The notes under the pieces are model-generated. The model saw only the letters and a list, made by a program, of their open reading frames with translations. It made no database searches and had not been told where the DNA came from. The position numbers and the translations under genes are program-made. DNA of 46,262 nt from a virus (Duplodnaviria > Caudoviricetes): the IMG/VR virus record IMGVR_UViG_3300010048_000007, positions 1 to 46,262 of that record. One strand, given 5' to 3'. The stretch's first letter is position 1, and each line of letters opens with the position of its first letter. Positions 13,039-38,406 of the stretch are shown piece after piece.

Positions 13039-13148
13039 TCGGGGCCTCCCCAGCCGCCCAGATAGGCGAGCAGCATGGCGAGCACGACGGCGCCGTAGAA
13101 CGCCAGCGCGGCGAGCGCCATGATGGCCCAGAGATCGTGATTAGCCAT
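13035..13148 (-). CDS. Small single-TM peptide
   Basis: MANHDLWAIMALAALAFYGAVVLAMLLAYLGGWGGPD; overlaps both neighbours. Confidence 0.5.
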   Translation of the reverse strand: MANHDLWAIMALAALAFYGAVVLAMLLAYLGGWGGPD

Positions 13149-13374
13149 CGGGCGGCTCGTCATCGTAAATGTCGGGACGTAGCGCGGCGCGGGAGATCCC
13201 CGACAACCTCTCAACCTGTCGGACCCACTCGACCGGGATGCGGCCACTATCAAGGTACCACATGGCGACGGCCTGGCGAGAGATACCGAGTTTTTTGGCG
13301 ACGACAGAAGGGCCGCCGGCGGCTTTGACCGCTTCGAGGGTGATAGCGCAATCGCGGAAGTCGATTTCTCGCAT
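13141..13374 (-). CDS. cro: Cro/YdaS-like HTH regulator
   Basis: AVKAAGGPSVVAKKLGISRQAVAMW...RIP...LRPDIY. Confidence 0.85.
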   Translation of the reverse strand: MREIDFRDCAITLEAVKAAGGPSVVAKKLGISRQAVAMWYLDSGRIPVEWVRQVERLSGISRAALRPDIYDDEPPDG

Positions 13375-13378
13375 GGTG

Positions 13379-13418
13379 TTAAGAGGTGGTTGACACGGGT
13401 TCTTGCCAAGGATAGCTT
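13379..13418 (+). promoter_or_regulatory. sigma70 promoter with overlapping CtrA-like box
   Basis: TTGACA(13390)-N17-TAGCTT(13413); TTAA-gaggtgg-TTGAC at 13379-13394. Confidence 0.6.
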
Positions 13419-13458
13419 ACCAGGTGTCGCTGAGGAAATCTCAAAGTGGAGGTTCGAA

Positions 13459-13674
13459 ATGAATGGCAAGAGGCTAACCACGGTAGCGGCCGCACTAGCC
13501 GCCCTGATATTTGCGGCACAGCAGGCCAGCGCAGCGCTGGCTGAGGTTGGCGCCTCCATCAAAGCCGCAAACCATCATATGCAATTGACTTCCGATTGCG
13601 GTGGAGGTGACTCCAGCAGCGGTGACGGCAGCGACGCAAGCAGCAGTCCTTGTGGTGGTAGCGTCTATGGATGA
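13459..13674 (+). CDS. 71-aa peptide with hydrophobic leader and Cys/Gly/Ser/Asp-rich core (precursor-like)
   Basis: GGAGG RBS; ends DCGGGDSSSGDGSDASSSPCGGSVYG; 8-bp overlap with next gene. Confidence 0.65.
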   Translation: MNGKRLTTVAAALAALIFAAQQASAALAEVGASIKAANHHMQLTSDCGGGDSSSGDGSDASSSPCGGSVYG

Positions 13675-14266
13675 GTTGCAAAAACTGACTCTAACCCGCA
13701 TCACACCGGTGATCGATGCGTGGATTGAAGCAAACGCGCCCTCCAAAGATCAGGGTCATTTAAAGGCGCGCCTCTCTTATATTGAGGCGTTCGATCTCTC
13801 CTTTATTGTGCCGAAACTTATTGAGGAAGGTAAGGGCGTTTTCAATCAGACCAATACTGATTTGGGCATCCGCGAGTTGAAGCGCTTCCTATCCCTTATG
13901 CTTTTATGCGATGCGACTCATACCCCGTCGGCCCAACTTGATATTGCGTGGCATCAATTTATCATCTTTACAAAGCAATACCGACGGTTTTGCCAGGATA
14001 GTTTTGGAGGTTACCTCGATCATAACCCTCGCCTTCCTACCGACCCGCATAAGGACGGCAATTTCGAGCATACTCTAAATTGCTACCGCACCCACTATGG
14101 AGAGCCACCGGCTGAAATGTGGGAGCCCTTCCCCAAATTAGAGGTGCCCAACTTTGCCGATCTAATCGCACATTTGGTTGTTCTACGGGATGCATTAGAT
14201 CAAATAATATCGATAGGAGAGTGGAGTGAGTGCGATCGAACACCAGATCCACCAAATCCTACGTAA
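13667..14266 (+). CDS. DUF1399/GRDP-like (glycine-rich domain-containing protein-like) protein
   Basis: ELKRFLSL...PSAQLDIAWHQFIIFTKQYRRFC...GGYLDHNP...TLNCYRTHYGEPPAEMW family signature. Confidence 0.78.
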   Translation: MDELQKLTLTRITPVIDAWIEANAPSKDQGHLKARLSYIEAFDLSFIVPKLIEEGKGVFNQTNTDLGIRELKRFLSLMLLCDATHTPSAQLDIAWHQFIIFTKQYRRFCQDSFGGYLDHNPRLPTDPHKDGNFEHTLNCYRTHYGEPPAEMWEPFPKLEVPNFADLIAHLVVLRDALDQIISIGEWSECDRTPDPPNPT

Positions 14267-14426
14267 TCAAATCGCCATAATGCATGCGCTAGAAACGGTG
14301 GCGACGGTTCACGGCGAGGAATTGCGGCGAGGAATAGAAGATACTGCACGGCTGCTGCGTGCTGTGGACGAGAGCGGCCCGAGATCCCAGAGATCCACAC
14401 GGCACAGTGTTTCGATATGGCGCTGA
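14226..14426 (+). CDS. Hypothetical protein
   Basis: 66 aa, GGAG RBS, overlaps flanking genes. Confidence 0.5.
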   Translation: MSAIEHQIHQILRNQIAIMHALETVATVHGEELRRGIEDTARLLRAVDESGPRSQRSTRHSVSIWR

Positions 14427-15277
14427 TTGATGAGGACGCCGCAACTTATCGGGCGCGGGCCGCGTGGTGCGCTTCGGACATGGTGCGCGGGGCGCAGACG
14501 TGTCCGGCGCAGATGTGGGCTTACGCCGATATGAACCCCGCCAAGCTCTCGGCAAAAGAGGCGCGCGAGCTCGACGACGGCACCGCGATCCATCTGGCGG
14601 TCTGCGAGCCCGGCGAATTCGAGGCGCGGACCCAAATCATCGATGCTGCCGATTACCGCACCAAGATGGCGCAGGAGTACCGCGAGGGCGCGCGGTTCTC
14701 CGGCCGCGTGCCGCTGTTAGTGCACCAAGTCAACCAGATCATGGCAATGCGGCGCGCGGTGCTGGCCTCGCCGGCCGGGCTGTGGCTCGAGGCTGCCAAG
14801 TGCGAGCAGACGATTATCTGGGATTGGACGCCTTGGGCAACGATGCAGCCGATGCCCTGCAAGGGCCGTGTCGATGTGGTCAGCGCGGCCCCTGGCGGTC
14901 CGCTGATCGACGTCAAAAGCGCCCGCTCAGCCTCGCCGGCGGCGTTCGAGCGGGCGCTCGTGCAGTACGGGCATCACATCCGCGCGGCGTGGTACCAGGA
15001 TGGCTGGGGCACGTCAGAAGGCGAGCGGCGGCGCTACGGCTACCTGGTGGTGCAGAAGGAGGCGCCGTATCTGGTCAACCTGTTCTGGCCGTCACCTCGG
15101 GCGCTCGAGTGGGGCCGGCGCGAGTATCGCCGGGTCTTGCAGCAGATCGGCGAGTGCCAAGAAGCCGGAGTGTGGCGCGGTTACGAATGGGGCCGCGAGG
15201 TCGAACTGCCGGTTGGTGCCGAGTACCGTCTGGCCGAAGCATTCGCCCAGGAGGATGCGGAGGAGGAGGACGCATGA
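14417..15277 (+). CDS. RecE/ExoVIII-like PD-(D/E)XK exonuclease (DUF3799-like)
   Basis: DGTAIHLAVCEP, CKGRVD, LIDVKS, YGHHIRAAWY, VVQKEAPY. Confidence 0.85.
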   Translation: MALIDEDAATYRARAAWCASDMVRGAQTCPAQMWAYADMNPAKLSAKEARELDDGTAIHLAVCEPGEFEARTQIIDAADYRTKMAQEYREGARFSGRVPLLVHQVNQIMAMRRAVLASPAGLWLEAAKCEQTIIWDWTPWATMQPMPCKGRVDVVSAAPGGPLIDVKSARSASPAAFERALVQYGHHIRAAWYQDGWGTSEGERRRYGYLVVQKEAPYLVNLFWPSPRALEWGRREYRRVLQQIGECQEAGVWRGYEWGREVELPVGAEYRLAEAFAQEDAEEEDA

Positions 15278-16477: not shown

Positions 16478-17767
16478 CTACCACTCAAGCCCAATGGCAA
16501 AGCCGTGCTCGTTCAGGGCAGGTATATCCTTCTGTAAACGTTGCCCTATATCAACCCTCCAAAAAGGAGAACCTGGCATAGAAAGCTTATCAAGCACTTT
16601 ATGTGACCCGCGCCTTCCCTGTCTTACGGTGTCACCAACGCCGACAGCTACGCCAACATAATGCCCGGCAGTGGCATACTTACTATTGCTACCAGCCATC
16701 ACTTCACAGGGGTGGAAATGATCTTCATCGTCGATACCAAAGATTGGGATGCCAACGATCTCGTCGTAGTCGCGGGGCGGGTGAGGGTATGGAGGTACAC
16801 AGGCGATCGTTCCCACCGCTGGCTGATTAAGAAGATGCGCGCCGCGGGTTTGCTCACCGGCCGCCACAGCGTAAAGAAACTCGAGGGGGTCGCACTCGAA
16901 CAAGTCGGTCTCGATGTTGAACGCGGGCCAGCCGCACCTCATGGTGAACTCGAGAGGCCAGGTGGTCCCGTCGTCTGAGATAATGCAGTTGACATCGACA
17001 TTAAGAGCAATGTCGCCGAGTCGTTCCAACTGCGGCTCCAGCGGTTTGAGTACCATTTCAGCAAGTTTTGATCTTCGTACAAAACGCAGTACTGTGCCCA
17101 TTTCGCCAGTATTGGGACCGATATCACCACTACAAAACCTTTTGAATTCGTGGTTCTCCTCCCACACATCGGCCCACCCCGCCGGACCCCACCAGCCGCC
17201 AACGGCAAATTCGGTACCCTCGATCGCCTCTTGCAACAGAAACGGACACGGAGGCCGCCCGTGCTTTTTGCGCCAGCGACGCAGCTGATAGGTCGGATCT
17301 TCCGGCACGCCGGTTTTCGCACTCAGGCTTTTCTCGGCCGTATCCGAGCACGGCTTCGAATACAGCACTTCTCCTCGGCGTTCGACGAACGCAATCGCCG
17401 TATCGTAATCATTGAACTCGCGGTAGGTTGGAACAGCTATCCCGGCTTTTTGGAATACATTCATGCCGGCGCTGCGATCGAGCTCCCAACGGGCGCTTTG
17501 TTCATTCCCGCCTATGATGGCCACGCCTCGGGACCGCCATACATCCATTTCGCCCATATAGACCCCGTTCGTTTCGAGGACGACAAGGTCCGCCCAGTGA
17601 ATAAAGTACCTCCAGTTGTCCACTAACTCAACCAGCCCTTTGCCGATCGGGCGGGTGTTGCGATCGAACTTGCGCACGAACATGCGGACTTGGTGTCCGA
17701 CGCGCTGCGAGCGGAGCGCGAGATCTAACAGGCCGTCGCCAGCATCGGCGATCAGGAGAACACGCAT
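16478..17767 (-). CDS. PurD (GAR synthetase)-like ATP-grasp ligase, divergent
   Basis: RWELDR, GIAVP, SKP, LQEAIEGTE, GPNTGEMG (PurD GPNTGGMG), LEFTMRCGWP (PurD EFN.RFGDP). Confidence 0.85.
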   Translation of the reverse strand: MRVLLIADAGDGLLDLALRSQRVGHQVRMFVRKFDRNTRPIGKGLVELVDNWRYFIHWADLVVLETNGVYMGEMDVWRSRGVAIIGGNEQSARWELDRSAGMNVFQKAGIAVPTYREFNDYDTAIAFVERRGEVLYSKPCSDTAEKSLSAKTGVPEDPTYQLRRWRKKHGRPPCPFLLQEAIEGTEFAVGGWWGPAGWADVWEENHEFKRFCSGDIGPNTGEMGTVLRFVRRSKLAEMVLKPLEPQLERLGDIALNVDVNCIISDDGTTWPLEFTMRCGWPAFNIETDLFECDPLEFLYAVAAGEQTRGAHLLNQPAVGTIACVPPYPHPPRDYDEIVGIPIFGIDDEDHFHPCEVMAGSNSKYATAGHYVGVAVGVGDTVRQGRRGSHKVLDKLSMPGSPFWRVDIGQRLQKDIPALNEHGFAIGLEW

Positions 17768-17794: not shown

Positions 17795-18904
17795 TCAGAT
17801 GGTAGTGGTATAGAGGTTTATCGGGAAGCATATCCCGGAATTGGAGACATTGCTCATGTTGACCGCTATCCCAATGAGATAATTATTGGCCGCCAACGAC
17901 GAGCTCGCCGCGTTGAGCTGGGTGCCGCTAATCGTGAACAAAGTGTTGTTGTTACTGCCAAACGTTAATACCACTGAACACGCACCAGTGGTCGATAGCG
18001 AATAGGTCGGTGTACCGGGGCAGGCCGCCGAGCAGCTAACAGATATCGCTCCTGTGTAACCTGGCGCGGCAAAGTAATTGGGCACCTGCACGTGGGTGAT
18101 TTGCGGCAGCGCCGTCGACGGGGATATCGCGATCACCCCGAGGAACGCATCCCAAGTCTGCGCGGTCTGCGCGTTGACTGTGGCGGCGATGGGGGCGGTC
18201 GAATGGTAAACTCGCCACTCATCGAGAAGCGAAAATGTGCCGGGAACAAGATTGGTTGCTTGCGTCCACCCACTCCCCGCCGACCACGGCGAAGGACTCC
18301 CATCGTACAACATTGCCGGGCCATACAGCAGATCACCCGAGTTGGCCGGTGTAATCGTCGGCGACGAGAGAATACCGTTTGGTATGCCGCTGGTGGTATT
18401 ATTGGCAAATGCCGTGGCGGCGCTAGCATCGATCGCCGCAGTGCTCGGCACCCCCACAAATTCCGCCATCACGGCGTCCTCGAGATAAAACGCCTGCGAT
18501 TGATCGGTTATAAAATGAACTGTCGTGGGGGAACCTTGGACATTCGGCATCCACCACAACTGCACACCGAGCGTATCGCCGACGAATCTCCCGTTCTCAG
18601 CGCGCTGCAGCAGGAAGACATTCTGGCTGCCGAGGGTTATTCGGTCAAGCGAGGCTGGCAAACTGCTGTTGGTCTCGCTACGAACCATGCCGACCAGCGT
18701 GTTGCCCACCCCTACCGCCGGGATCGTCCAGGTATAGTCGGTCGCCCCGGCATTATGCTGCAAATTAACACTGCGCACTATGGATGGAGCAAAACTTGAC
18801 GCCACGGTCGGCACCCCACCGAGCACAAACTGCGCATCAGTATGCGCCGTAAACAGCAGCAGACCAACCAAGCCAAATAAGATCAATCGGCCAGGATGGG
18901 TCAT
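17795..18904 (-). CDS. Signal-peptide beta-rich adhesin-like protein with C-terminal cadherin/Ig-like repeat
   Basis: MTHPGRLILFGLVGLLLFTAHTDA|QF; C-terminal repeat shared with 27378..30050; 4 Cys. Confidence 0.65.
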   Translation of the reverse strand: MTHPGRLILFGLVGLLLFTAHTDAQFVLGGVPTVASSFAPSIVRSVNLQHNAGATDYTWTIPAVGVGNTLVGMVRSETNSSLPASLDRITLGSQNVFLLQRAENGRFVGDTLGVQLWWMPNVQGSPTTVHFITDQSQAFYLEDAVMAEFVGVPSTAAIDASAATAFANNTTSGIPNGILSSPTITPANSGDLLYGPAMLYDGSPSPWSAGSGWTQATNLVPGTFSLLDEWRVYHSTAPIAATVNAQTAQTWDAFLGVIAISPSTALPQITHVQVPNYFAAPGYTGAISVSCSAACPGTPTYSLSTTGACSVVLTFGSNNNTLFTISGTQLNAASSSLAANNYLIGIAVNMSNVSNSGICFPINLYTTTI

Positions 18905-24554: not shown

Positions 24555-24750
24555 TCATTCGCGCAGGCAATTTTAACTGCACCTCCGCTAAATCCTCTCC
24601 TTGTTGGTTTCGCGCAACCTCCCGCACAACAGTCGGTCCTTGATATGTCTTCGCTACAGTTGGACTCTCCGAGCACACGCACATTTCATTAGTACACCCA
24701 CCAGACCCTGTAAGTGCCACCACCATACAAACACAAGCAAACAGCCTCAT
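24532..24750 (-). CDS. Small putative exported protein or lipoprotein
   Basis: Hydrophobic N-terminus ending GSGGC; ATGA overlap with the upstream gene. Confidence 0.4.
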   Translation of the reverse strand: MRLFACVCMVVALTGSGGCTNEMCVCSESPTVAKTYQGPTVVREVARNQQGEDLAEVQLKLPARMNASLCVC

Positions 24751-25037
24751 GGTTTGCCCTCTAACCTCTTCTCTACCTGCTTACATGTCTCAAGCACCGC
24801 AATAAAATTCCCACCCCCAACAATAATGATACAGCGCGCATTCGGCGAGACAAGTCTGCCATACTGTCGCGGTTCCCTGACAGAAACAACCGCTATCGGA
24901 TTAACTGCAACCTCCTCCCCATCTAGCCCTGTAAATGTAACCAACTCAATTGTCCCTGCAACAGATTCCGGCGGCGGATCGTCTTGGCAGGCACTCAGAA
25001 CCGCTAACCACATCAACAGAACACCAAGAGAAGCCAT
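24747..25037 (-). CDS. Lipoprotein with FlbD-like domain
   Basis: Lipobox VLSA|C; IELVTFTGLDGEEVAVNP...FIAVLETCKQVEKRL resembles FlbD family. Confidence 0.5.
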   Translation of the reverse strand: MASLGVLLMWLAVLSACQDDPPPESVAGTIELVTFTGLDGEEVAVNPIAVVSVREPRQYGRLVSPNARCIIIVGGGNFIAVLETCKQVEKRLEGKP

Positions 25038-25077
25038 CGCATCAGTTTGGCGCTAAATCCACGCCATCGGATAGAGC

Positions 25078-26364
25078 CTAGCCAGCCACTAGCTGCCATA
25101 CCCGTACATACTGAAAATAAAACGGATTATTAAACGACGTGTTACTCGTGCACGGAGTGCCAGCATCCCAATACGATCCCGACGGCAGACATGTCCTAAA
25201 GATCATCACCCACACAATGCCGTTATCCCAATCCGCCGACTGCAGCGCATACGGCGAATTCCCGGCGCTGGACCAATTCACCCCATCCAAAAACATCGAC
25301 ACAATGCCATGCGCCGAGCCATTATTATCCCACTTCAGAGCTATCGTGTGAAATTGGTCATCAAGCGGACCCCCGCTGGTAAAATAATTAGGACTGGCAT
25401 TATCACTACACCCCAAACACGTCGTAATCGGCGCGACAATACTAGGACCACAATAATTTCGGCTCGCCGGATTTGTGCTCTGAACTCGTTCGCACAAATC
25501 TATTTCCCCTTCCCAATCACCCCTGGCCCTAAAATAAATGTCAACATGATACCCATCCCCCTCACCGCTCACATCAGTCGGATACTTTGCGGAAGTCTCA
25601 AAATAGCCAAAGCGTTGGCCAAACCCATTCGTGGTATCTCCTCCCGCCGCCGAAGAAATCCTAGTCCAATAATTCCAATTGCCGGCAGGGATCGAGTTGG
25701 TCGGTCCCATGATCGCCAGCCCGGTCGTCGGACTGCAGCATGATATATAGTCGCCGGTGGCAGGGGGGCCGCTGGGGTCTTGGCCAATCTGCGGGTTCCA
25801 GCTCGACGCAAGTGATGAATCGCTTGTGAACTCATCATCAAATGTTAAATTCCAATGATACCCCGCCGGTGCCGGATTATTGAACGGACACGGCGTCGGT
25901 ACTGGGCCGCCAACCGACGATGTGCACGCACTACTAACCGCACCAGACACATCAAAATGCGCTGACGCACCAATATTCGTGTCTGCCCCATGAATCTGAT
26001 AATTGACCTTGTACCCCCCATTTATTTGCGCTGACGGAGCCGTAAACTGACATGACCAATTCAGCTGACCCGTCGATGGCGCCGTGCGCGCGCAATTGCT
26101 GAATTTCCAGTCATATCCAGCGCCGCCGCACCCGGCCCAATTCGTCGCCGCCGCCGTGCATATCGTCATATTATCATCAGCATTGCCCTGACTTCCCGAA
26201 AGACTGACCGTCATCGTCCCTCCGCCAGTCACTGTCACCGGCGCAATAGTAATACTTGCGCTCGGCGCGCTGACAACCGTAAAACTCGTGCTTACCGCCG
26301 CCCACGCCATCGCCCCACTGCAAACACCTACAATACAAAGGGCAACAAACCGCCAATTAAACAT
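25078..26364 (-). CDS. Signal peptide + Ig-like repeat + GH16-like (ConA-fold) domain
   Basis: WNLTFDDEF, FGYFETSAK, EGEIDLCE (ExDxxE), FHTIALKW, QYVRVWQ; 14 mature Cys. Confidence 0.78.
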   Translation of the reverse strand: MFNWRFVALCIVGVCSGAMAWAAVSTSFTVVSAPSASITIAPVTVTGGGTMTVSLSGSQGNADDNMTICTAAATNWAGCGGAGYDWKFSNCARTAPSTGQLNWSCQFTAPSAQINGGYKVNYQIHGADTNIGASAHFDVSGAVSSACTSSVGGPVPTPCPFNNPAPAGYHWNLTFDDEFTSDSSLASSWNPQIGQDPSGPPATGDYISCCSPTTGLAIMGPTNSIPAGNWNYWTRISSAAGGDTTNGFGQRFGYFETSAKYPTDVSGEGDGYHVDIYFRARGDWEGEIDLCERVQSTNPASRNYCGPSIVAPITTCLGCSDNASPNYFTSGGPLDDQFHTIALKWDNNGSAHGIVSMFLDGVNWSSAGNSPYALQSADWDNGIVWVMIFRTCLPSGSYWDAGTPCTSNTSFNNPFYFQYVRVWQLVAG

Positions 26365-26420
26365 AGTTTATCCCCTTGGGTCTTAGTCAACCACTAGCTG
26401 CCATACCCGAGCGTACTTAA

Positions 26421-27356
26421 TCAGGGATGATACACATGAACGTATTGCATCGTACCATCGGTGGTTTGCGGTGGACAATAAAAAGAGCCACCACCGCCTG
26501 TGTACCAAGCCACCGTTTGAACCACCGTGTTCGTGCCGTAAGGATACATAACTCCGGACTGTACTTCTATTTGCGTCCCGTCGATGTAGGTGCCATATAT
26601 GCCGTGATTATATGTGTTTTGCTGGTAGCCATCGATGTATAGGTAATAGTTCCCGCTGAGGCGTTTCATTCCGACGGTGTGCCAATTCCCATCGCGTATT
26701 ATCTTATCTACATTTACCCAACCACCGCCGTTGTCTAATCTCACGGCACTGGCCTGAGATGATGCTGTTGCATTGCCCCAGATAATCCTGCCCCAGCCGC
26801 CGTATTCCGGCATATCTATTTCCATCCCGGTGGGATTATAGCTCTGAAAAGCGCCGCCCGCACTCTCAAACCAAAAATCGGTATCGTCGGTACTGGGACT
26901 CCCGGGAGGCGTGATTCGACGTTTGTATTCAACATAAAAGTCGCCGGGTAAATTCAAATTGGAGTTCCATATATAAGGAAGAAAATGATAGGTCCCTGTT
27001 CCATAACTGCCACTCACGAGATATTCTCCGGTGTGCACTCCCTCATTGGTATAATATGGGAGTGCTTGCTGGACAGTGCAGGTTCCCGTTGTGTCCGGTA
27101 CAGCGAAGCCCTGGCCATAACCCGGCGGGAGTGATGTCACCTTATCAAAATCTGCAGAAGCCGTAGTGTCACACGGCCACGACACCCCGGCGGCGGCACT
27201 GTTGTCGGCGTCACCGCAGGTGCCACCACCACCGCCGCCACCGCCACCACCACCACCACTAGTGACGGTGAACGGTGTTGATACAACTGCATTGGCGGCG
27301 CCGACAAGAAGGCATAGTATCAATACCGCAAGAATAACCACCCGAGCGTTCCTCAT
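26421..27356 (-). CDS. Signal peptide + poly-Gly linker + GH16-like domain
   Basis: FYVEYK, MEIDMPE, WHTVGM, YIDG, QYVHVY; 4 mature Cys. Confidence 0.72.
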   Translation of the reverse strand: MRNARVVILAVLILCLLVGAANAVVSTPFTVTSGGGGGGGGGGGGTCGDADNSAAAGVSWPCDTTASADFDKVTSLPPGYGQGFAVPDTTGTCTVQQALPYYTNEGVHTGEYLVSGSYGTGTYHFLPYIWNSNLNLPGDFYVEYKRRITPPGSPSTDDTDFWFESAGGAFQSYNPTGMEIDMPEYGGWGRIIWGNATASSQASAVRLDNGGGWVNVDKIIRDGNWHTVGMKRLSGNYYLYIDGYQQNTYNHGIYGTYIDGTQIEVQSGVMYPYGTNTVVQTVAWYTGGGGSFYCPPQTTDGTMQYVHVYHP

Positions 27357-27377
27357 TGCGCTGTCACCGAGAAGTGA

Positions 27378-30050
27378 TCACGGATGATATACATGAATAT
27401 ACTGATATACAGTGTCGGAATTAGCTTGCGGGCAGCTATATTGCGGATAAGGGTGCCACCCTTGAAAAATCCAAACCATTTGTGAAGTAGCAAAACTCGA
27501 ATATTGTGGCCCACCAATGCCTTTTTGCGGTCCAGGCCACGGAGTACCGCCAACCGAGTTCGTCGATACCTGAACACCATCCACCCAAAACGTAAATTGG
27601 GCAGTAGCACTAGAGCCGGAGCCGGAGGTTGTCCTAACCATTCCTACCGTGTGGGGATTGGTATCGGCATTAAAATTGCCGAGTTGCGGCCATGCACTAG
27701 GCGGATAATAATTGTATCCTTGATCGCCCGGTCCGCTACCACCCCAGCCTGGGCTCCACAAGAACCAGTTCAATGTTGTGCCTTCAGGTAGATCGATTTC
27801 CGTACTCGTGCTCGAAGCACCCACAAGCGGTTCAGGCGGTCCCGGAACACCAGAATTTTCTGAAAAGAAATCCGAGTTTATCCAATAGTAATTTCCTGGT
27901 GGAAGCTGCCTTTTCTTATACTCGATATAGAAGCTGCCCGCTGGGCCGCTCCACTTGGAATAGGTTTGTGCGCCCACAAAGGTGGCGTTAGTACCGGCAA
28001 CATTTGACTGATGCAATCCCTGACTATCTAGCATGGGAGGATACCCAGTAATTGTGCTACAAGCGCCTGTACTTGTATCTACCGGCGTCAGATTGCCAAG
28101 ATAATACGAGCCTGCTGTCCATTTTGATGTGTTGAACACACCTCCATCGCGGTCAAAATCATCGCTCATCGCTGAGTCACAAGTCCAGTTTGACGGAACA
28201 CCAGCCGCAACATGATTATCGGCATCCTGACAGCCGGTGCCGCCGCCGCCCCCACCGCCGCCGTCGTAGGTGTTGCTGGCAAACCATGCGGCATAGTAAC
28301 TCTGCGGCGTACTTGGTACGGACATGTTGCAGGATCCCGAAGGAACGATCGCGGTCCCCGCCGTCTGCGAGCAACTATTTGTATACGCCCATGAATATCC
28401 CGCAGCGTCACAATTCGCACTATTAAAAGTAGCAGAATTACAGATCATAATCCGGCTATTTGCATTCTGCCCCGGCAGCGGCCCATTGCTCCAGGCAAAT
28501 GCCGCTGTAGAGCCGGCCGTCACTGTAGCATTACTGCTTCCGTTGACAGTGATGGCAGGCGAACCGCTGGTCACCGAGAACGGTGCCGATGCGCCGACAT
28601 TATAAGCAGAAACTGCAACATTAAAATAGTTAGCAACGTAATTGCCCGCCACCGCTGGTGCGATGAGCGAGCAGTTATTTGATGTAACCCCGGGGGCTGA
28701 AGGCGCCGCTTGACTGCAATTTTTTAGATATGCCCAACTATATCCTGCGCCGTCACACTGCGCGTTTGATGCCGTCACCCCAGCATTACATATTCCAATC
28801 CAGTCGTTCGCATTCCCGGCGCCGCCGCTCACCGCCACCGTCATGGAAGCACCGCTCGCCACCGTTGCGCCACTTGACTGCCCATTCACCGTGATCCGCG
28901 GCCCCGCAGCAGCAGTCACCGTCACCGTCTGCGGCCAGCAGCTCGGAGAATTGCTCACCCCACTCATCGTCGCAACTACACCTACGCGATACGCCCGTAC
29001 TGTACCAAGATTGGTTGATGCCGCCGTATTCAGATTGGCTGTCCCAGACGGCACGGTGAACGAGTTATTATCTGCGGTATCTGCCGCCGCGCACCCAGTT
29101 CCCGTCCCTACCGCATAGGATGCCGACGCCGGACACGTCGCCGAGCACGTCGTTGAGAGCGTGCCAACCGTTCCAGCGAAACCCTGTGCTATATTGTTAG
29201 GAGGAGGACTAACGGAAACTCCAGTGATCGATGGCTGGGTGGAGCCGCCAACCGTGAAGGGAGCGCTTGCATAAACCGGAAGGCTAAAATTATTACCAGT
29301 CCATCCCGCGAAGACAGCAAAATAATTGCCGTTCGTACCCGGCGCTGTCATCGCGCATGTTGCCGATGCCAGCCCCGTTGCTGGCGGCGGCTTGTTACCC
29401 GGCGGCTCACCGCTAAGAGAACTGCAATCTAAATACTTCCCGTCATAGCCGGCCGAATAACAGGACCCCCCCGAAACGGACGCCCCATCCGCATTGCAAA
29501 TCATCATTGTATCTGTATTATGCGCGGGGCCACCGCTGACCGCCACGCTGATCGAGGCCCCAGCGGTCACTGTCGTGCCCGTCGTCGAGCCATTGACGGA
29601 AATAGCTGCGGTAACCGCGCCTTGGGCCGTTATACTCTGCCCAAACCCCACGCCATTGACATATACGTTCCCAGTAACAGTGGTACCAATACAAATCAAA
29701 TATGATCCGGCCCGAAGTCCGCCGCCGGAGATATCGGGGCCACTTGGATTGATGCTCAATGTGTTACCCTGAACCAAGAAATCCTGATTGTTTGCTGAAT
29801 TTGTGGAGGTGCAATTTGGTGCCGTCACTGACAGTGCATAGGACGGACTAGTACATTGCGCCGGCGTGCTGCACACCGTCGAGATCGTAGCCACCGTACC
29901 CGAGCAGGGCGCCGTACACGTATTGGCGCTCAAATTCTGCTGCTGAATCACCGCACCGACAGTCAATTGCGTCTGCTGAACATACGCCAATGCTCCAGCC
30001 GACATTCCTATAGCAACAATGACGCTGACTATCCAGCCGCTGCTTTTCAT
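27378..30050 (-). CDS. Signal peptide + five cadherin/Ig-like Cys-paired repeats + GH16-like domain
   Basis: Repeats ITVNG...IC...C...GY.W...C...C and CS..C...C...NN.F; TEIDLPE, HTVGM, QYIHVY; 26 Cys. Confidence 0.75.
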   Translation of the reverse strand: MKSSGWIVSVIVAIGMSAGALAYVQQTQLTVGAVIQQQNLSANTCTAPCSGTVATISTVCSTPAQCTSPSYALSVTAPNCTSTNSANNQDFLVQGNTLSINPSGPDISGGGLRAGSYLICIGTTVTGNVYVNGVGFGQSITAQGAVTAAISVNGSTTGTTVTAGASISVAVSGGPAHNTDTMMICNADGASVSGGSCYSAGYDGKYLDCSSLSGEPPGNKPPPATGLASATCAMTAPGTNGNYFAVFAGWTGNNFSLPVYASAPFTVGGSTQPSITGVSVSPPPNNIAQGFAGTVGTLSTTCSATCPASASYAVGTGTGCAAADTADNNSFTVPSGTANLNTAASTNLGTVRAYRVGVVATMSGVSNSPSCWPQTVTVTAAAGPRITVNGQSSGATVASGASMTVAVSGGAGNANDWIGICNAGVTASNAQCDGAGYSWAYLKNCSQAAPSAPGVTSNNCSLIAPAVAGNYVANYFNVAVSAYNVGASAPFSVTSGSPAITVNGSSNATVTAGSTAAFAWSNGPLPGQNANSRIMICNSATFNSANCDAAGYSWAYTNSCSQTAGTAIVPSGSCNMSVPSTPQSYYAAWFASNTYDGGGGGGGGTGCQDADNHVAAGVPSNWTCDSAMSDDFDRDGGVFNTSKWTAGSYYLGNLTPVDTSTGACSTITGYPPMLDSQGLHQSNVAGTNATFVGAQTYSKWSGPAGSFYIEYKKRQLPPGNYYWINSDFFSENSGVPGPPEPLVGASSTSTEIDLPEGTTLNWFLWSPGWGGSGPGDQGYNYYPPSAWPQLGNFNADTNPHTVGMVRTTSGSGSSATAQFTFWVDGVQVSTNSVGGTPWPGPQKGIGGPQYSSFATSQMVWIFQGWHPYPQYSCPQANSDTVYQYIHVYHP

Positions 30051-30063
30051 ACCGCTAGTCCTC

Positions 30064-33000
30064 TCAGTTTATCGTGAGAGTGAAGTCTGTGCAAACCGTC
30101 GGCCTGAATTGAACGCATATGTGTGTCACATGTGTGCCTATATCGCTCGGAGTGAAATTGCGCGCTTGATAGACGCTTAGATTATAAACAAGGAATAAAT
30201 CTTCATCGCTGGTGGTTATCCCCTCGTTAACAACAGTTCCGTTATTCGTTGGAATTGTTGCGGTAGCTAATGGATTGGTAACAGCGACGAGATTGCCGTT
30301 CCCACTGGGTATGGTAGCAGTATTGGGGCGGGTGGCGGCGGTATGATCCAACGTGATTCCCGTAACTCCCACCGCCGTAGTAGACGTGCCGTTCCATGGA
30401 TTAATCGATGCCACTGGCAATTCCGGATAATAACTCCCATCATAATGGCTGTTGCCAAAGCCATTTGGCCATAGTCTGTCCATAGCAACCATCTTAAATG
30501 AATCATTGCCCATATTGCACGCTTCTTGATCAGTATTGACCTGCATGTTCTCTCTAAAATGAGTGTTGCCCGGACCTTGGATACTCGCAAACAAATTATA
30601 TTGCCACGTTAGTAATTTGTTATTGTGCTCCCAGGGGGAGCGGCTGCCATCACACCACTCTGTCCAAAAGATAGCTTTGTTATGCTTTGCCGCAAAGCCA
30701 GTCACCATCTGTCGCTGACTATTTGAAAACTGGTCAATATAAATGTTAGCTGAGCTCGGTGGGCCTTGAGTATAAACGTAGTCATCTAGAGAAAACGCAT
30801 CCACCAGATCAGCGATAGATACTGGTACTCCGGGTCCAGTATACTCTAAATATGGTATCATATTGAGTCTGGCGGGGCCGTCTATGTCGAATTTTAAATT
30901 TGGGTTACAGCCATTTGCCACGCCGCAATCACGGAGCAATGCTTGTAACATTTTGAGTTCGTGCGCAACAGCGGTCGACCAACGGGCAGGAGATACATAT
31001 GCAATAAAGGCATCTTGCTGCCATGGAGAAAAGTATTCCCAGCCACAGCACCATTCTCCCTCTATGCGTATGTAATACAGCATATTGGCGTCGGGCCTGA
31101 GATACGTCGTAATGATGTTACTAATCGAACTATCCCATGTGCCCGCTGCAATTGCATCCCACTCTACCGGGCCCTGTATATGATAGATCGCTTCGCTGGT
31201 CATTGCTTCGCTGGGAATCGTTCCAACATTTACCTCAACTTGATAATTACCAAGGCCGGGTCCTCCGCTGGTGACTTTGACTTGCCCCGATGGAATGCCG
31301 GCGGCAAACAATCCATCTCCCACCCTTGGTCCGTTGCCGCTGCTTATCGCGGTGATGGTGAGGGTGGTGCCCGAGATCGAGCCGGTGAACGCCGAATGAT
31401 AGGCAGCGCTGCTTATCGTACTAGCGAGTGGGTATGGGGTCCCGTCGCGGCTGTCCACCAAATTTATCGTATAAACTCCTGCGGTCGGACCAGTGATTGA
31501 TCCAACGCTCGCGCAGCATGCCAGAGCACCGTTCCATTCACTAAACCAGATCTGCCATCCGGGGTTGATCTGGGAAGTCGCCCAGCCCTGCGCGCCATTT
31601 ATCGCCGCCAGCGTTGTGAACGTGAAGTAGGTATTCCCTGCCGTGCCGTTTACCCCACCCATGTAATTGGCATGCGGACCCCCGTCCGACGGCGACCCAT
31701 TGATATTGACGAGCACCGTGCCCCACCCCGCATTGCCCGGGATGCCCGGCTCGCCCCCCCATGTGTTGCTGTCCACGCCCCAACCGCAAATGTCACACGA
31801 CGGCTGCCCACCAACGCCATTCGGCAATCGGCCCAAGAAGGCCGTGGAAAATGGAGCAAAGCCGGTGCTGTAGGCCCACTGCGACAGCTGCATCGTCATT
31901 GGAATCGCTGTCTTGTTACACTGCCCTGGAGGCGTGGTGCTGCCCTGCACCGGCCCCGGCACACCCGGGTTGCATGGGTCGGTGTAGATGTGCCACGCCG
32001 ATCCATCCCAGTTAAACCATTCAAAATTCCTCAAATCATAAGCGTATAGATTTGGGTCACCTGGAATTGTTTCTAGTTGAAACGCTCCATAGTTTGTCCC
32101 AGGTTCTTTGAAATTACCGATCGTCGGTGGGTTAGTGAGCACACCGTTGCGCAACACCGGCCAATTGCCCTCGAGATCGGGCGCAAAACAGCCGGAACAG
32201 AGGGGAGCTGTTTTGTCAAACGACCATGTCGCACCAAAGCTGTCTTGAATTGTAGCCATAGAGGCCGGATTATTGGCATTAATAACTGTCGCCTGCAGCT
32301 GAGTTGTTCCAGTAATAGTAAATTCCGTATACTTCGAAGGGCCCGCGCTTGGCTGGCTGGTCTGTACGCAGATGTGATACGTGCCAGCCGCCGGGGCTGT
32401 CGTATTTACTGTTGCATTACCAGCACCGCCAAGTGAAAAATTTGTGGTATCTCCTTGATCGGTACAACCGCTGCTGACCAAATTATACGACCCGGCAAAC
32501 CCAGGCTGCGACGGAATCATCACCGTACTCAGTGTACCCACCACTTGTGGGGTTCCCGGCACAAATAAGCAACTCGAGGGGCACGCCAGCGTCGTCGCCC
32601 CAAGCGTCTGCGATGCCGCGCTCCCAACGATCGTAAATTCCTGATTCAGGGAGGCCATTCCCGACTGCGCTGCCCGAACACAGACATAATAGGTGCCTGC
32701 CGGTGGTACCGTTGCCGTTGTCTGCAGGGTAAACGTCGGAGCACTTCCAGCAATCTGGAAGTGAGTCATATCGATTGTGCCCGTACTACAATTAGTCCCG
32801 CCACTAACCAGCGTCATCGAGCCCGCGAAGGTTTGCGATGTGGGTTGCATCGTAGCCGACAATGTGCCAATCGTAAGAGGACCGCTCCCTCCCGTATTAA
32901 ACCCACAGCTGGGATTGCATGATAAGTTAATCGCGTAGATCTGAGTAGTACTGCCAGCCACTGTTGCAACAACCGACCACGTACAGTTGTCTTGGCTCGA

Positions 33001-33384
33001 TGTACAATCCGGCAACACCGGCGCAGCGTTTGTCGACAGCGCCCCGCTCGACGACATTGTCAAATACCCAGGCAACGCGCTGGCAGTAGCCGGGCACCCG
33101 GATTGGCTCGGAGTGCAAAGCGCAAAAGTGCCCGACGGAGTCGTTCCATCACTCATATGAATGACATACTGCGCAATCGTCGAGTTCTGGGGAGTCGTGT
33201 CCGGGATACATAAAGAGACATTAGGGCCAGTCGGACACACTCCACTGCCAGTCGCGGTCACTGACGCGATCGTAGGCGGCCCAGCTGGCCCTGGCGGTGA
33301 GCCGCCGCTCGGCATAAACAGCGCGTCAGCCCGCCACGCTAGCAGCACCAGAATGGCTACAAGCGAGAAAAGCCGCCGCATCAC
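30064..33384 (-). CDS. Signal peptide + cadherin-like repeats + GH26-like TIM-barrel domain
   Basis: WDAIAAGTWD, YIRIEGEW..GW, VDAFSLDDY, KHNKAIFWTEW match GH26 acid/base and nucleophile contexts; 30 Cys. Confidence 0.7.
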   Translation of the reverse strand: MMRRLFSLVAILVLLAWRADALFMPSGGSPPGPAGPPTIASVTATGSGVCPTGPNVSLCIPDTTPQNSTIAQYVIHMSDGTTPSGTFALCTPSQSGCPATASALPGYLTMSSSGALSTNAAPVLPDCTSSQDNCTWSVVATVAGSTTQIYAINLSCNPSCGFNTGGSGPLTIGTLSATMQPTSQTFAGSMTLVSGGTNCSTGTIDMTHFQIAGSAPTFTLQTTATVPPAGTYYVCVRAAQSGMASLNQEFTIVGSAASQTLGATTLACPSSCLFVPGTPQVVGTLSTVMIPSQPGFAGSYNLVSSGCTDQGDTTNFSLGGAGNATVNTTAPAAGTYHICVQTSQPSAGPSKYTEFTITGTTQLQATVINANNPASMATIQDSFGATWSFDKTAPLCSGCFAPDLEGNWPVLRNGVLTNPPTIGNFKEPGTNYGAFQLETIPGDPNLYAYDLRNFEWFNWDGSAWHIYTDPCNPGVPGPVQGSTTPPGQCNKTAIPMTMQLSQWAYSTGFAPFSTAFLGRLPNGVGGQPSCDICGWGVDSNTWGGEPGIPGNAGWGTVLVNINGSPSDGGPHANYMGGVNGTAGNTYFTFTTLAAINGAQGWATSQINPGWQIWFSEWNGALACCASVGSITGPTAGVYTINLVDSRDGTPYPLASTISSAAYHSAFTGSISGTTLTITAISSGNGPRVGDGLFAAGIPSGQVKVTSGGPGLGNYQVEVNVGTIPSEAMTSEAIYHIQGPVEWDAIAAGTWDSSISNIITTYLRPDANMLYYIRIEGEWCCGWEYFSPWQQDAFIAYVSPARWSTAVAHELKMLQALLRDCGVANGCNPNLKFDIDGPARLNMIPYLEYTGPGVPVSIADLVDAFSLDDYVYTQGPPSSANIYIDQFSNSQRQMVTGFAAKHNKAIFWTEWCDGSRSPWEHNNKLLTWQYNLFASIQGPGNTHFRENMQVNTDQEACNMGNDSFKMVAMDRLWPNGFGNSHYDGSYYPELPVASINPWNGTSTTAVGVTGITLDHTAATRPNTATIPSGNGNLVAVTNPLATATIPTNNGTVVNEGITTSDEDLFLVYNLSVYQARNFTPSDIGTHVTHICVQFRPTVCTDFTLTIN

Positions 33385-33893
33385 TTTGCCCCCAACCCCC
33401 AGAGATCGTATTCCGGCTTGCCAGTTGTCTCATTCAAAAAGAAATGCACCGTAACAGCCGAATCCTTCCCCATCGTCTGTGTAAACCCTAACGGCGATGG
33501 ATTTGCGGTCACGCCCGGACCAGGAACAACCAAAACAGTCCCACCACTTGTTCTTTGTACAAGCGACAGATCACAGGGATCACTCAGCCCATTATTATTA
33601 ATCGTCACAGTGACCGGCGAGCTCGAAGTATAATGTATGTGCTTGGCACAATCCGCGAGCGTCGGCGCGTCAGCCACACCAGAAAACACTCGCTTGGGCG
33701 ATTGCGGCCCTGGCGGCGCCGTCATCGGCACAGGAGTCCGCGGCGCCTTCACGTCTGTAGAAAACGGCATATATGGAGTACCCCTCTCCATTGGCGGCCT
33801 CAACTGATGCTTGGTGGACGGCGGCATTCCCGTTTGCGCGAATGCTGGCAGCCCCGATGCCATCAACAGGCCCACCATCACGAGCATTTTCAT
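33381..33893 (-). CDS. Signal peptide + tail-fibre distal-type domain
   Basis: MKMLVMVGLLMASGLPAFA|Q; TLADCAKHI...VTVTI...LVQ..GGTV.VVPGPGVT...YDLWG resembles fibre C-terminal domains. Confidence 0.6.
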   Translation of the reverse strand: MKMLVMVGLLMASGLPAFAQTGMPPSTKHQLRPPMERGTPYMPFSTDVKAPRTPVPMTAPPGPQSPKRVFSGVADAPTLADCAKHIHYTSSSPVTVTINNNGLSDPCDLSLVQRTSGGTVLVVPGPGVTANPSPLGFTQTMGKDSAVTVHFFLNETTGKPEYDLWGLGAK

Positions 33894-33903
33894 GTATCGA
33901 TCC

Positions 33904-34656
33904 TCATGGGTGTTTCAATGCCGCGATTACCCCAATTACGGCGCCGGTACCATTACTAGGATAATTGGCCGTAACACTATTGGCACCGAGAACACCGTTA
34001 GGGTTATACCCAAAGAACGAAGTCCCAGAGAACATTGTCCAGCCGCTGCTCAAGCTCGCACTGGCACCACTATTTGCAACAAATCCCGCAAAGATGAGCA
34101 GCTCGCCCGTCTGTGACGCGCCCGCACCAGCAAGCGCGACTGTTACTGAGGTGCCAGTGGTTTGTTGCAGGTTGCCCACGCCATCATCGGGTGAGGCATT
34201 CGCACCACCTACATCGACATAGGCTATCTCTGGATAATAGACTCCTGTATAGCTCACGACCGGAATAATCGTCCCGTCGCCAGTCACTGGGCACCACCAA
34301 ATCTCCGCCTTTACTGGAGCGGCTGCCGTACCAGGACCACCAGCAAACCCCTGACAAGAACCAATTGTCGCTGTCCCTGAGCTTTTCGTTATACTTGTTG
34401 TGTAGTCGGTCAAGGTACCTGTGCACGACGAATCAGGGCAATAACTCGTCATCACCAACAGAATATGACCATGCGTAACGGTTGTCGCCGCGGTCGGCGT
34501 ACAACTCGTCAATGCGCTGGAGCCTGGGCAAATATATATCTGAAAACCAGTTAGCACAAAGCCGCCGCCTCCGCCGCCGCGAGCCAGTACCATATTGGCG
34601 TGTGCCGCTCCGGGCAGCAGCAGCAATATCGGCATCAATAAAACAAGCCGTATCAT
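33904..34656 (-). CDS. Signal-peptide beta-rich adhesin-like protein
   Basis: MIRLVLLMPILLLLPGAAHA|N, poly-Gly, two-lobed beta-sandwich pattern like 17795..18904; 6 Cys. Confidence 0.6.
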   Translation of the reverse strand: MIRLVLLMPILLLLPGAAHANMVLARGGGGGGFVLTGFQIYICPGSSALTSCTPTAATTVTHGHILLVMTSYCPDSSCTGTLTDYTTSITKSSGTATIGSCQGFAGGPGTAAAPVKAEIWWCPVTGDGTIIPVVSYTGVYYPEIAYVDVGGANASPDDGVGNLQQTTGTSVTVALAGAGASQTGELLIFAGFVANSGASASLSSGWTMFSGTSFFGYNPNGVLGANSVTANYPSNGTGAVIGVIAALKHP

Positions 34657-34694
34657 CTGATGCCCCTTGACTTACTCTGAAATACCTGACAGCC

Positions 34695-34883
34695 ATGGCT
34701 CCCATGGATGAAGAACATTGGAAGCCCATTCCCGGCTACCCAGGATATGAAGCCAGCAGCCGAGGCTGGCTTTACCACAAAGGAACCGTGACACAAGTTG
34801 CTCTCGCCAAACGCTTCGGCGTTTCGTCCATGACTATTTCTCGCGTTGTTCATTACTTCACTTACCCTGTAGCTCATCTGTAA
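34695..34883 (+). pseudogene. Internally deleted NUMOD4-HNH homing endonuclease remnant (NUMOD4 start fused to terminal HTH)
   Basis: EEHWKPIPGYPGYEASSRG (NUMOD4) joined directly to TQVALAKRFGVSSMTISRV (HTH); no HNH core. Confidence 0.7.
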
Positions 34884-37800
34884 GTGACTTGTACAGTTCC
34901 CCACCCTGTACTGCTCGCCCACCCCGCTCCTGTAGCTATCGCCCCGACCCAGTACCCCGATGGTATCGCTGGATAGGCCACTCCCATCGCCTGTTCGGTT
35001 GCCGCTCCGCTATTCGCGTTGCAAGAAGTGCTATTGACCTTGTACGCAGAACCACTATTAAACGCCACCGCACTAGCCGCAGTGTAGATATCTATTGTCG
35101 CAGTGCCTCCTACCAGGACATCAGGCCGGCAAGTGACCCCTGTAATCACCCGCGGCGTAGCCCAACGCCCAAATGATATTCCAACTGCAGCAGCCGAAAG
35201 ATTTTGCCCCGACCCCCACGTCAGATCGAAATATTGGGCTGGACCCAAAGGTACCAAGAACGCCCCCGTTCCTGTCACTCCGCTGGTCGTTACATAGGTG
35301 TCAATATCAGCCGGGATGGTTATTGCTGCATTAGCCGCCCCACCGCCGACTTGACCATTGTCAATCGCATCACCTGATGCGGCAGTCGGCGCAAGTTGTA
35401 CGGTTACTCCGACCGTCTGGATGTGAACTCCACCATTGGTCGCCAATGTCACCGCTGCCGGCAGCGTCAAAGTCAATCCAGCTGTAGTAAAACGAAATAC
35501 GGCCGCTGAATTCCATTCGCCCCCGGTAACCGTATGAGCTGATGGATTTGTCGACACCAATGGCGCCACAGGCCCATTGAGGCACACCCAATTCGTCCCA
35601 TCAGTAACAAACTGCGCATCCCAGGTTATCGCGGGAAGTGTAGCCGTAAGATTGAAACCGCAGCCGTAAATTTGCCCCGCGGCACTCGAAACTGAATAAG
35701 AGTGATTAGCGTCAGAAATTGTCGAAAACGACGACGTTCCGATAGCACCTGGTGCCGGTAACTGCACCGTAACTCCAGCCACTGTCGGCATATTCAGATA
35801 AGCCCCATCTGTTGCCGCCAGAGGAAAGGTACCTGCCGTGCTTATCGTCCGCACCCAGGCCTGAATCGAAAGAGTACCACCATTTGCGATGTTCTGGGTG
35901 CCGGTATTGTAAACGCTAGCGTTACTAGTAAGGCCGGGGTTCAGAGTGAAGTTGGTCATTGGGCAACCGCCACCACTGCATGGCGAAAGTGCTATTAATC
36001 GACCATCTGCTCCGACGCTGATAAGAGGATTCACTACCCCGTTCTGCGGCGACACCGTTGTATTCGGAATAACCGCCGGGTTAATATGGCCAGCCCCATC
36101 GAGCTGCACCAGCGCATTGTTGGTCTGACCCGTTGAGAACGCGAGTGGGGCATTCGTACTACCATTCGCGGTCGTCGCGGAGCTAGCAACCGGAATTAGC
36201 CCTGCCGTCTGGTTTGAGAGCCCGCCAACCGGCGCCTGAAAACTTGGCGCCACCCCAGCTCCGCCTGAAGTTAATACCTGACCTGCCGTCCCAACGCTCG
36301 CCAAACAGGAAACCGCCGTTCCCGTCGCCGCATAGTAGGCGGTAGAAAAGGCAGTGGTGCAATTATTAACTGTGCCGCTTCCCGACGCTGGCGTCCCGAG
36401 CACAAACTGATTGCTCGCATTGAGGCCGATCCACTGCGTGACTGTACCGGCCGCCAGGCCTGTCGCTGAGATCGCGCCACCTACCGACAAGGCCCCCGAG
36501 AAGGCGCCTGTCGTCGTGGAGATCGGCGACTTCTCGTTACCGGCCGCGTCGGTCGTCAACACGGTGTTGACGCCGGTGGTGTTAACCGGAAGGCTGCTCG
36601 TAATGGTCGTCGCGGAGCCGGCTACCGCGAGTTGGCCGCTCGACATTCCCGAAAGCGCCGCCTGGAAGGACGGCGGCCCAGAAGTGCTCCACGTCAGCAC
36701 CTGGCCGTTAGCGGTACCGTTCGTCAGGCACGACACCGCTGTGCCCGCGGCCGCGTAATAGGCCACGGAGGGAAATGTCGTACAATTGTTGACGGTCCCC
36801 GCACCACCGCCACCGCCCGGGGGGCCGAGCACGACCTGGTTGTTTGAATTGAGCCCTAGGGAGTTGACCACGGTGCCGGAGCTCAGGCCCGTGAACGTGA
36901 GTGCACCACCGACCGATAGAGTGCCGGTAAAGGCACCTGTCGTCGTACTCACCGGAGCGAGCATCAGGCCCGCCGCGTTAAGCTGCACCAGCGCGCTAGG
37001 ACCTGTGTTCGCCACCGCCAGTCCGGTGTTCAAAGCGGTGCCGACGGTGTTGGCCCAAGTCGGAACGTAACCAGGTGTGGTAACACCAGGGCCACTGATC
37101 CCGCCGCCGCCTCCGGCTGGCGGGATCCCCCAGCCGTTGTCCCACAAGATTTGCGTGTGATTGCTCGTGCCGGGTGGCGGAACGGCGCCTGACAGCGCGC
37201 TGGTGTAGACCTGGATGTTGCCGGTCAGCTGCGTGTTGGTTAGCCCGGCAAAGGAAGCAGGCGTTCCGCCAGCGTTGTACTGCACTTGCCCGGGCAGACC
37301 TTGTGCCTGGGTCACCGCGGCGTTCAAAGTTTGATTTGGGTAGGTGCCGCTCAGCGTGAGGTTATTGCCGATACCCAATGGTGCCAAGCTCGCGCCGCCG
37401 CTGACGACAATACCAGGATTTGGCACGGCAAGCTTGCCGAGGGCGCCGCCGCCGAGATTATTCCAGGTCGTCGCGGTCGACGCCACATCGGCCAGGTTAT
37501 TGACCGGGTTGAGCGGCGTGTAGCCAATGTTCGCCACGGCCGCGCCTACCGCCATCTTGGCGTTGCTGACCGCGTTGTTTGCGATCGTGTTCACGGTGGC
37601 GCCGGCGGCGCTGACCACATCGCCGCTGTAGGCCGGCATTTGGGTCGACGCCAACTGTCCCGCGAAATCAGGGAAGCCCAAAGTCAGCGTGCCGCCGAGC
37701 GAAAGCGAGTGCGTGTTGATCGTGACGCTACTGTTCGCAAGCTGCGCATTCGGCAGCGCCGAGATAGCGAGTTGCGAGCCCGACAGCGTCAGGTACGACG

Positions 37801-38059: not shown

Positions 38060-38406
38060 GCGTAGGTTGACCCTGTCGCCGACGCGATGATCGAAATCCG
38101 CGGCGGGATCGGATCAGAAGCGTTCCAAATAAATCCCGCGCCTGGGGCCATGCCTGTCGAATTGCCGGTGCACAGCGTTCCCGAGATCGTCGCCGTACCG
38201 GTCAGACTCCAACAGAGCTGCGCACTGGAAATGTTTGTCAGCCAGACATAGCCCTGCGGTGACGGCGGCCCGGTACCGCTGGACGGAAAAACCACATTGG
38301 ACGCTGTGGTGGTCGCCGTGCCGTTGCACGCGCTAACCTGGCCCGCAGCGGCCAGCGCAGCCACCGGAAGGAGCCACAACAGCAGGAAGGCTATCAGGTG
38401 CATCAT
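38044..38406 (-). CDS. Small signal-peptide beta-sandwich protein
   Basis: MMHLIAFLLLWLLPVAALA|A; 4 Cys. Confidence 0.65.
   Translation of the reverse strand: MMHLIAFLLLWLLPVAALAAAGQVSACNGTATTTASNVVFPSSGTGPPSPQGYVWLTNISSAQLCWSLTGTATISGTLCTGNSTGMAPGAGFIWNASDPIPPRISIIASATGSTYACNYN

Follow-up and report, generated by a model that had tools for sequence, protein, structure and literature searches.

Two overlapping genes lie between a Cro/YdaS-like gene and an exonuclease VIII-like gene in the genome of a phage found in soil metagenome runs. The first specifies a peptide of 71 amino acids, and the second specifies a protein of 199 amino acids that belongs to the PF27765 (UCP032817-like) family. 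The window, by which we mean the whole stretch of 46,262 nucleotides analyzed here, is a circularly assembled phage genome with a 123-nt terminal repeat and 59% GC. No RNA dataset is listed among the runs carrying its sequence. PHROG matches in the window include terminase, major head, and tail-fibre genes. Neither an integrase nor a CI repressor was found when 46 window ORFs were compared with the PHROGs, and no tRNA was found in the window.

Table. Features of the peptide/PF27765 locus and its flanks
Feature	Position	Strand	Basis
Cro/YdaS-like HTH gene	13141..13374	-	PF15943 E 6.1e-15; PF14549 E 9.3e-6; phrog_35 E 2.4e-10
Candidate promoter, TTGACA-17 nt-TAGCTT	13390..13418	+	read from sequence
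GGAGG ribosome-binding site	13448..13452	+	6 nt before ATG of peptide gene
Peptide gene, 71 aa	13459..13674	+	ORF read from sequence
Start/stop overlap ATGGATGA, 8 nt	13667..13674	+	peptide gene / PF27765 gene
PF27765 (UCP032817-like) protein, 199 aa	13667..14266	+	precomputed domain, Atlas clusters, conserved residues
Exonuclease VIII-like gene, next conserved early gene	14417..15277	+	phrog_412 E 1.8e-50

The peptide gene and its genomic setting

An earlier note on this DNA had described a 71-residue ORF with a hydrophobic leader and a core, a GGAGG ribosome-binding site, and an 8-bp overlap with the ORF downstream; all are present. Specifically, the peptide runs from a basic N-terminal end through a hydrophobic stretch and a short spacer to a core of Gly, Ser, Asp, and Cys that carries Cys47 and Cys65. 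It has a predicted Sec signal (KD 2.64), judged by eye and hydrophobicity rather than with a dedicated predictor, and cleavage is likely, again by eye, near A25–A27. The mature peptide is acidic and of low complexity. RiPP-type systems are expected to have a short precursor, made up of leader and core, beside a partner gene, and the 71-residue peptide displays this arrangement. The peptide matches no Pfam, NCBIfam, or PHROG family, and no homologs are detectable, all Atlas matches falling below 0.8. When a hydrophobic N-terminus, at least 11 Gly, Ser, or Cys residues in 15, and two cysteines were required together, this peptide alone passed among 360 candidate short ORFs of the window, by thresholds that were derived from the peptide itself.

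The 8-nt overlap is consistent with translational coupling of the two genes. It recurs without an indel in contigs of six runs (X1, X2, X3, X4, X6, and X7), of which X1 and X2 may be the source of the window sequence. Because the six-run contigs reproduce it, the split between peptide and partner is not an assembly error; a frameshift joining the two ORFs was ruled out by identical letters in contigs of other runs. The DNA of the pair had also been called richer in AT than its flanks. That description fits the partner gene, whose GC content is 0.478 (genome, 0.59; a value this low occurs in 10 of 457 windows), but not the peptide gene, at 0.593.

Divergence of the pair from cro is borne out by the Cro/YdaS gene on the minus strand. 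The sigma70 promoter, described as good, is so in part: its −35 hexamer is perfect (TTGACA, 13390–13395) and its spacer is 17 nt, but the −10 hexamer, TAGCTT, matches the consensus at three of six positions, and a consensus promoter scan made no call there. No terminator-like site was found on the plus strand between 14266 and 14417, from where an AAA gene shares the rightward direction of exonuclease VIII, and the intergenic DNA showed no conspicuous operator-like repeat. The simplest account of the position between Cro and exonuclease VIII is that the promoter of the early recombination arm would drive the pair first. Whether this is the place where CI should sit, as had been suggested, can be judged from two Cro relatives in viral contigs: one (L034) has a divergent CI-like HTH gene in the slot, but the other (L033) has Cro without CI. 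By this comparison, the Cro-divergent slot can hold CI, and an empty slot is not exceptional. A search by way of exonuclease VIII revealed no close phage relatives.

Elsewhere in this Cro/YdaS-bearing phage, with no CI or integrase found, an HTH protein at 1498–2472 has a weak ParB-HTH match. A GARS-like ATP-grasp gene (16478–17767, minus strand; PF01071, E 1e-6) lies at the end of the late arm and is not counted with the pair because it is on the opposite strand, 2.2 kb from the peptide. Ten virion-arm genes on the minus strand (17795–18904 and 24747–38406) have signal-peptide-like, hydrophobic N-termini (KD 2.3–3.7) and no PHROG match, and several of them are large and rich in Cys. These features are unusual for tail genes and suggest phage proteins that are exported or assembled in the envelope.

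The partner protein and its family

The earlier note had assigned the partner to DUF1399 (PF07173), the GRDP-like family. This assignment did not hold: a Pfam search with E values up to 0.1 gave no PF07173 match, and the family is PF27765. PF27765.1 is the precomputed domain of the 199-residue protein. Its top Atlas clusters carry PF27765, both by features (0.92) and by structure (TM 0.57–0.62), and the share of PF27765 in the matched clusters is 61–100%. NCBIfam yielded no match at E values up to 10, TIGR04222 included, and PHROG yielded none. No HTH or TPR match appeared in Pfam, NCBIfam, PHROG, or structure searches, and the protein has no clear membrane helix.

The motifs D..WH, T..Y...C, and G...H.P are common to the protein and its PF27765 relatives. 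The residues singled out in the earlier note (D92..W95H96, F108C109, and H119.P121) are present and conserved; D92, W95, H96, Y105, and H119 are invariant among 109 aligned sequences, and C109 is nearly so. We infer that the conserved Asp, His, Tyr, and Cys residues of PF27765 may build a metal site. An AlphaFold model from the 109-sequence alignment (pLDDT 86; a model from two sequences, with pLDDT 42, was not used) is all helical. It has a C-terminal helix at residues 163–183, a single Cys189, and no multi-Cys tail.

Solved structures gave no match by sequence (best E 0.12) or by Foldseek at E values up to 0.001, and the best Z in structure comparison was 4.3, with no known catalytic fold recognized; such absence does not prove a new fold. 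The best match among viral structures in BFVD, a comparison of predicted model with predicted models, is a Harvfovirus glycine-rich domain-containing protein-like entry (E 1.7e-4; TM by target 0.68). An Atlas structure cluster with PF07173 in 50% of its members also matches the model (TM 0.61), and PF07173 is matched by 12 of the 109 aligned relatives. PF27765 is thus a sister of the GRDP-like/DUF1399 family, and the phage protein is a GRDP relative at one remove. The plant GRDP proteins (AtGRDP1/2, GhGRDP1) are large; the phage protein lacks a PF07173 match yet, model against model, shares the fold of the PF07173 family. The plant proteins have growth and seed phenotypes. Judged by title, the DUF1399 papers found were plant, fungal, or review papers. 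For the PF27765 domain itself, HMMER found 4,226 or more representatives (50% identity), and the domain occurs in bacteria, phages, and giant viruses.

Cysteine tails across the family and their absence in one clade

The earlier note had described GRDP-like proteins as often carrying a Gly/Ser/Cys-rich tail in cis. This is right for PF27765: of the best 150 homologs, 102 have at least two cysteines C-terminal to the domain, 11 have a hydrophobic helix at the end instead, and 35 show neither feature, while two lacked the motif used for scoring tails. Among more distant HMMER matches, a cysteine lies within 45 residues of the conserved Trp, on its C-terminal side, in 103 of 140 (median distance 10). 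The same holds for 58 of 64 viral loci. Those 64 came from a general motif scan of viral contigs; all are true PF27765 members, 53 of them with two or more tail cysteines. The family is common in these contigs (L035–L098); most of the members there are small, have a tail of two to five cysteines, and lie near the ends of prophages, and many look actinobacterial in sequence.

Distant members in plasmid and genome loci adjoin genes for glycosyltransferases, ABC transporters, radical SAM enzymes, 2OG/JmjC/TauD oxygenases, and methyltransferases. Specifically, a glycosyltransferase and an ABC transporter lie beside the cis-tailed members of L001, L003, and L004, and other cis-tailed members neighbor TauD (L030), radical SAM (L025, L028), or methyltransferase (L022, L029) genes. 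By this gene context, the family is at home in clusters resembling those for peptide biosynthesis. In plasmid clusters of Rhizobiales type (L001, 120–4483; L003, 3857–5835; L004, 3226–7571; L027, 2321–4628), a glycosyltransferase and/or an ABC transporter follows one or two CxxCxxC-tailed PF27765 proteins. All four have the look of glycopeptide clusters not yet described. L001 was deposited as a phage but matches L004, a plasmid cluster of Agrobacterium. In an Azospirillum member (L008, 3875–4567), the domain is followed by nine near-identical copies of ADCLRE, an arrangement reminiscent of a multi-core precursor. The domain is also found in tandem copies, and it forms the N-terminal part of membrane proteins named TIGR04222.

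Against this background, the closest relatives of the phage protein stand apart. Its nine closest single-domain relatives, at 33–41% identity (alignment A3), have no multi-Cys tail, compared with 102 of 138 others that do (Fisher p 1e-5; the group and thresholds were chosen after the sequences had been viewed, and four multi-domain matches of similar rank, P0005, P0011, P0012, and P0014, were kept out of it). A quick tree of 69 domain cores places the phage protein and the nine relatives on one side of a branch with SH-aLRT 83, which is not starred. Six of the nine have a hydrophobic C-terminal helix and two more fall just below the cut-off; the last helix of the phage protein (KD 1.32) falls below that of most of the group in hydrophobicity.

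Some of these relatives may also retain the trace of an upstream peptide. In the window, the frame of the partner upstream of its ATG reads as runs of Ala and Val because the Gly, Ser, and Cys codons of the peptide occupy the −1 frame; conversely, Ala/Val codons force Gly, Ser, Cys, or Arg in the −1 frame. Three of the nine relatives (P0003, P0008, and P0015) have called N-termini with 10, 7, and 8 Ala or Val residues among the first 15, against 2 of 138 others (p 0.0015). In P0003, the back-translated −1 frame gives a Gly, ten residues of Gly/Ser/Cys/Arg type, two more, and Tyr/His-Gly, with a possible stop over an inner Met-Asp, and this ending matches the layout of the window, where ...YG and a stop fall in the overlap. 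P0004 has a weaker Ala/Val trace, and the other five relatives are uninformative or negative. The over-called N-termini of P0003, P0008, and P0015, which gene callers had extended upstream, are of the kind that an overlapping Gly/Ser/Cys-rich upstream ORF would leave. By the same indirect route, back-translation, the pairing of a peptide with a tail-less PF27765 protein may be conserved. The proposal that a segment ordinarily carried in cis is supplied here in trans is supported by the frequent tails of the best homologs and their absence from the nine close relatives, and indirectly by the trace in three of these.

Direct inspection of more distant neighborhoods went against the expectation of small Cys/Gly-rich ORFs upstream of the domain. 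No comparable Gly/Ser/Cys peptide adjoins the domain in 28 plasmid, phage, or genome loci or in 64 viral loci, and these 92 distant loci include six tail-less members. Only L021 (825–3127, a Streptomyces plasmid) has a Cys-tailed ORF two genes upstream of the domain: a 178-residue ORF with a five-Cys tail is followed by a gene of no known kind and then by a tail-less PF27765 fusion protein, possibly another form of splitting. When viral sequences were scanned with P0002, P0003, A2, A3, and A6, no locus of a close relative was confirmed, and a metagenome scan returned only the record of the window itself. A genome scan gave three weak Streptomyces loci with no profile match, which were not counted; tblastn with P0004, P0008, and P0010 found nothing or distant members only.

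The contexts of the peptide cysteines were compared with those of the family tails. Both score like first tail cysteines in a matrix built from the HMMER matches, a level reached by 1 of 146 background Cys contexts. Scores as high are reached by 16–18 of the 146 with a matrix of upstream residues only and by 30–32 with a viral matrix. Because the match vanishes with these two matrices, it mostly reflects Gly/Ser composition. The motif [A/S][D/E]C, which occurs in 18 of 103 tails and in 2 of the 146 background contexts and is present in the peptide as SDC, was considered as a recognition motif shared by tails and peptide; suggestive as it is, it failed the upstream-only test.

A proposed split tail, its partner, and the alternatives

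The notion that we favor, with confidence a little short of even, is that the peptide represents the cysteine tail of the family, detached and furnished with an export signal, and that the PF27765 partner binds and probably modifies it. The two genes likely form an undescribed module for peptide maturation. They would be co-transcribed at the head of the early recombination arm. The partner would bind the peptide tail in the cytoplasm and would probably act on Cys47 and Cys65, in a metal-dependent manner, at its conserved Asp/Trp/His/Tyr/Cys/His site. Modification would precede Sec export of a product of about 45 residues. Our guess, for the weakest step, is that the product benefits the phage at the host envelope by binding metal or by excluding rival phages. 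The module would be an accessory insertion in a slot where related phages can have CI, with CI's function not replaced.

The pair differs from the systems it most resembles. PF27765 is uncharacterized, and most of its members have the Cys tail in cis, whereas the phage protein is tail-less with a separate signal-bearing peptide upstream. TIGR04222 membrane proteins, as described in the relevant passages of PMC12452194, have Ser/Gly-rich tails with interspersed Cys that are predicted to be extracytoplasmic, like the peptide core; those passages assign no function to the N-terminal domain. TIGR04222-named genes were matched by tblastn, whereas the phage protein lacks a TIGR04222 match. The MNIO-modified bufferins of the same source are Cys-containing precursors with Sec signals that are modified before export (PMC12452194), which gives the maturation route proposed here a precedent. 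MNIO/bufferin clusters combine MNIO and DUF2063 genes, but neither lies at the phage pair, whose flanks are Cro and exonuclease VIII. The pair would work like a precursor and a maturase, and its affiliation is with PF27765 rather than with PF07173, TIGR04222, MNIO clusters, or CI.

A substrate–enzyme pair, as the earlier note had inferred, is plausible. Its main rival fits nearly as well, even if on balance we regard it as somewhat unlikely. It holds that the two products cooperate and the PF27765 protein is non-catalytic: a carrier that binds the tail or a chaperone that loads metal, akin to a recognition domain or a leader, which would keep the peptide close to the membrane or pass it to host enzymes. 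Such a role fits because cis-tailed members often have their own, distinct tailoring enzymes next door. The ADCLRE repeats of L008 and the tandem or N-terminal occurrence of the domain in TIGR04222-named membrane proteins, putative substrates in the passages of PMC12452194 that concern them, point the same way. In the phage, however, no tailoring enzyme adjoins the pair, and the variety of enzymes elsewhere suggests that these add secondary changes. Invariant Asp, His, His, and Tyr with a near-invariant Cys also count against a purely binding role. Such a set suits a metal or catalytic site better than a leader. We consider it improbable that the two do not act on each other, being either unconnected accessory genes or a decaying piece of DNA acquired together. 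The unequal GC of the two genes (0.593 and 0.478), the lack of any peptide homolog, and the lack of such a peptide beside the 92 more distant loci would fit independence, as would the overlap, since overlaps of 8 nt are common in phage operons. Yet tail loss falls in exactly this clade, three relatives carry the −1-frame trace, and the only peptide of its kind in the genome sits directly upstream of the partner.

Two further readings would put the peptide to work unmodified or as a signal. An envelope toxin–immunity or superinfection-exclusion pair, in which the exported peptide acts as made and the partner neutralizes or anchors it, would suit the first position in the early arm, the predicted export signal, and the membrane-anchor helix of six of the nine close relatives. 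We hold it very unlikely, given that the pair has no phage-family match, the family's context elsewhere looks biosynthetic, and the mature peptide is acidic and of low complexity. In arbitrium systems, a phage signal-peptide precursor, AimP, lies beside a helical partner of TPR/HTH type, AimR, in the regulatory region. The Cro-divergent position, the combination of a signal-bearing peptide with a helical cytoplasmic protein, and the CI-like HTH gene that L034 has in the same slot bring such a signal and receptor to mind, which would govern the choice between lysis and lysogeny instead of CI. The partner, however, matches neither HTH nor TPR families, the peptide core is rich in Cys, Gly, and Ser, and no integrase is found among the 46 ORFs scanned; L033, one of the two Cro relatives, also has Cro without CI, such that an empty slot is not unusual, and the family is common outside phages. 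We give this reading very little credence. The role in phage decision-making raised in the earlier note has nothing beyond position in its favor, and a CI-like or lysis–lysogeny function of the pair is unsupported.

Returning to a partner that modifies a split-off tail, we can speculate more broadly, on a reading that we consider less likely than not. PF27765 and GRDP-like proteins could be an unrecognized family of enzymes that modify cysteines with the help of a metal, have a fold so far absent from the PDB, and normally act on their own tails. One clade would have moved the tail to a separate secreted precursor. The phage would express this minimal pathway of two genes from its earliest promoter and so deliver a modified peptide to the host envelope during infection.

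In the literature searched, which took in main texts and few subscription papers, no paper was found that treats the pair or assigns the domain an activity. PF27765 is a widespread domain for which the papers found report neither a solved structure nor an activity. Its naturally split form offers the simplest assay of domain function: one small protein and one short peptide. If the partner is a carrier, this would explain why many different tailoring enzymes lie beside the tailed forms. If it is a maturase, the pair would represent a new family of RiPP enzymes and a phage-encoded two-gene pathway.
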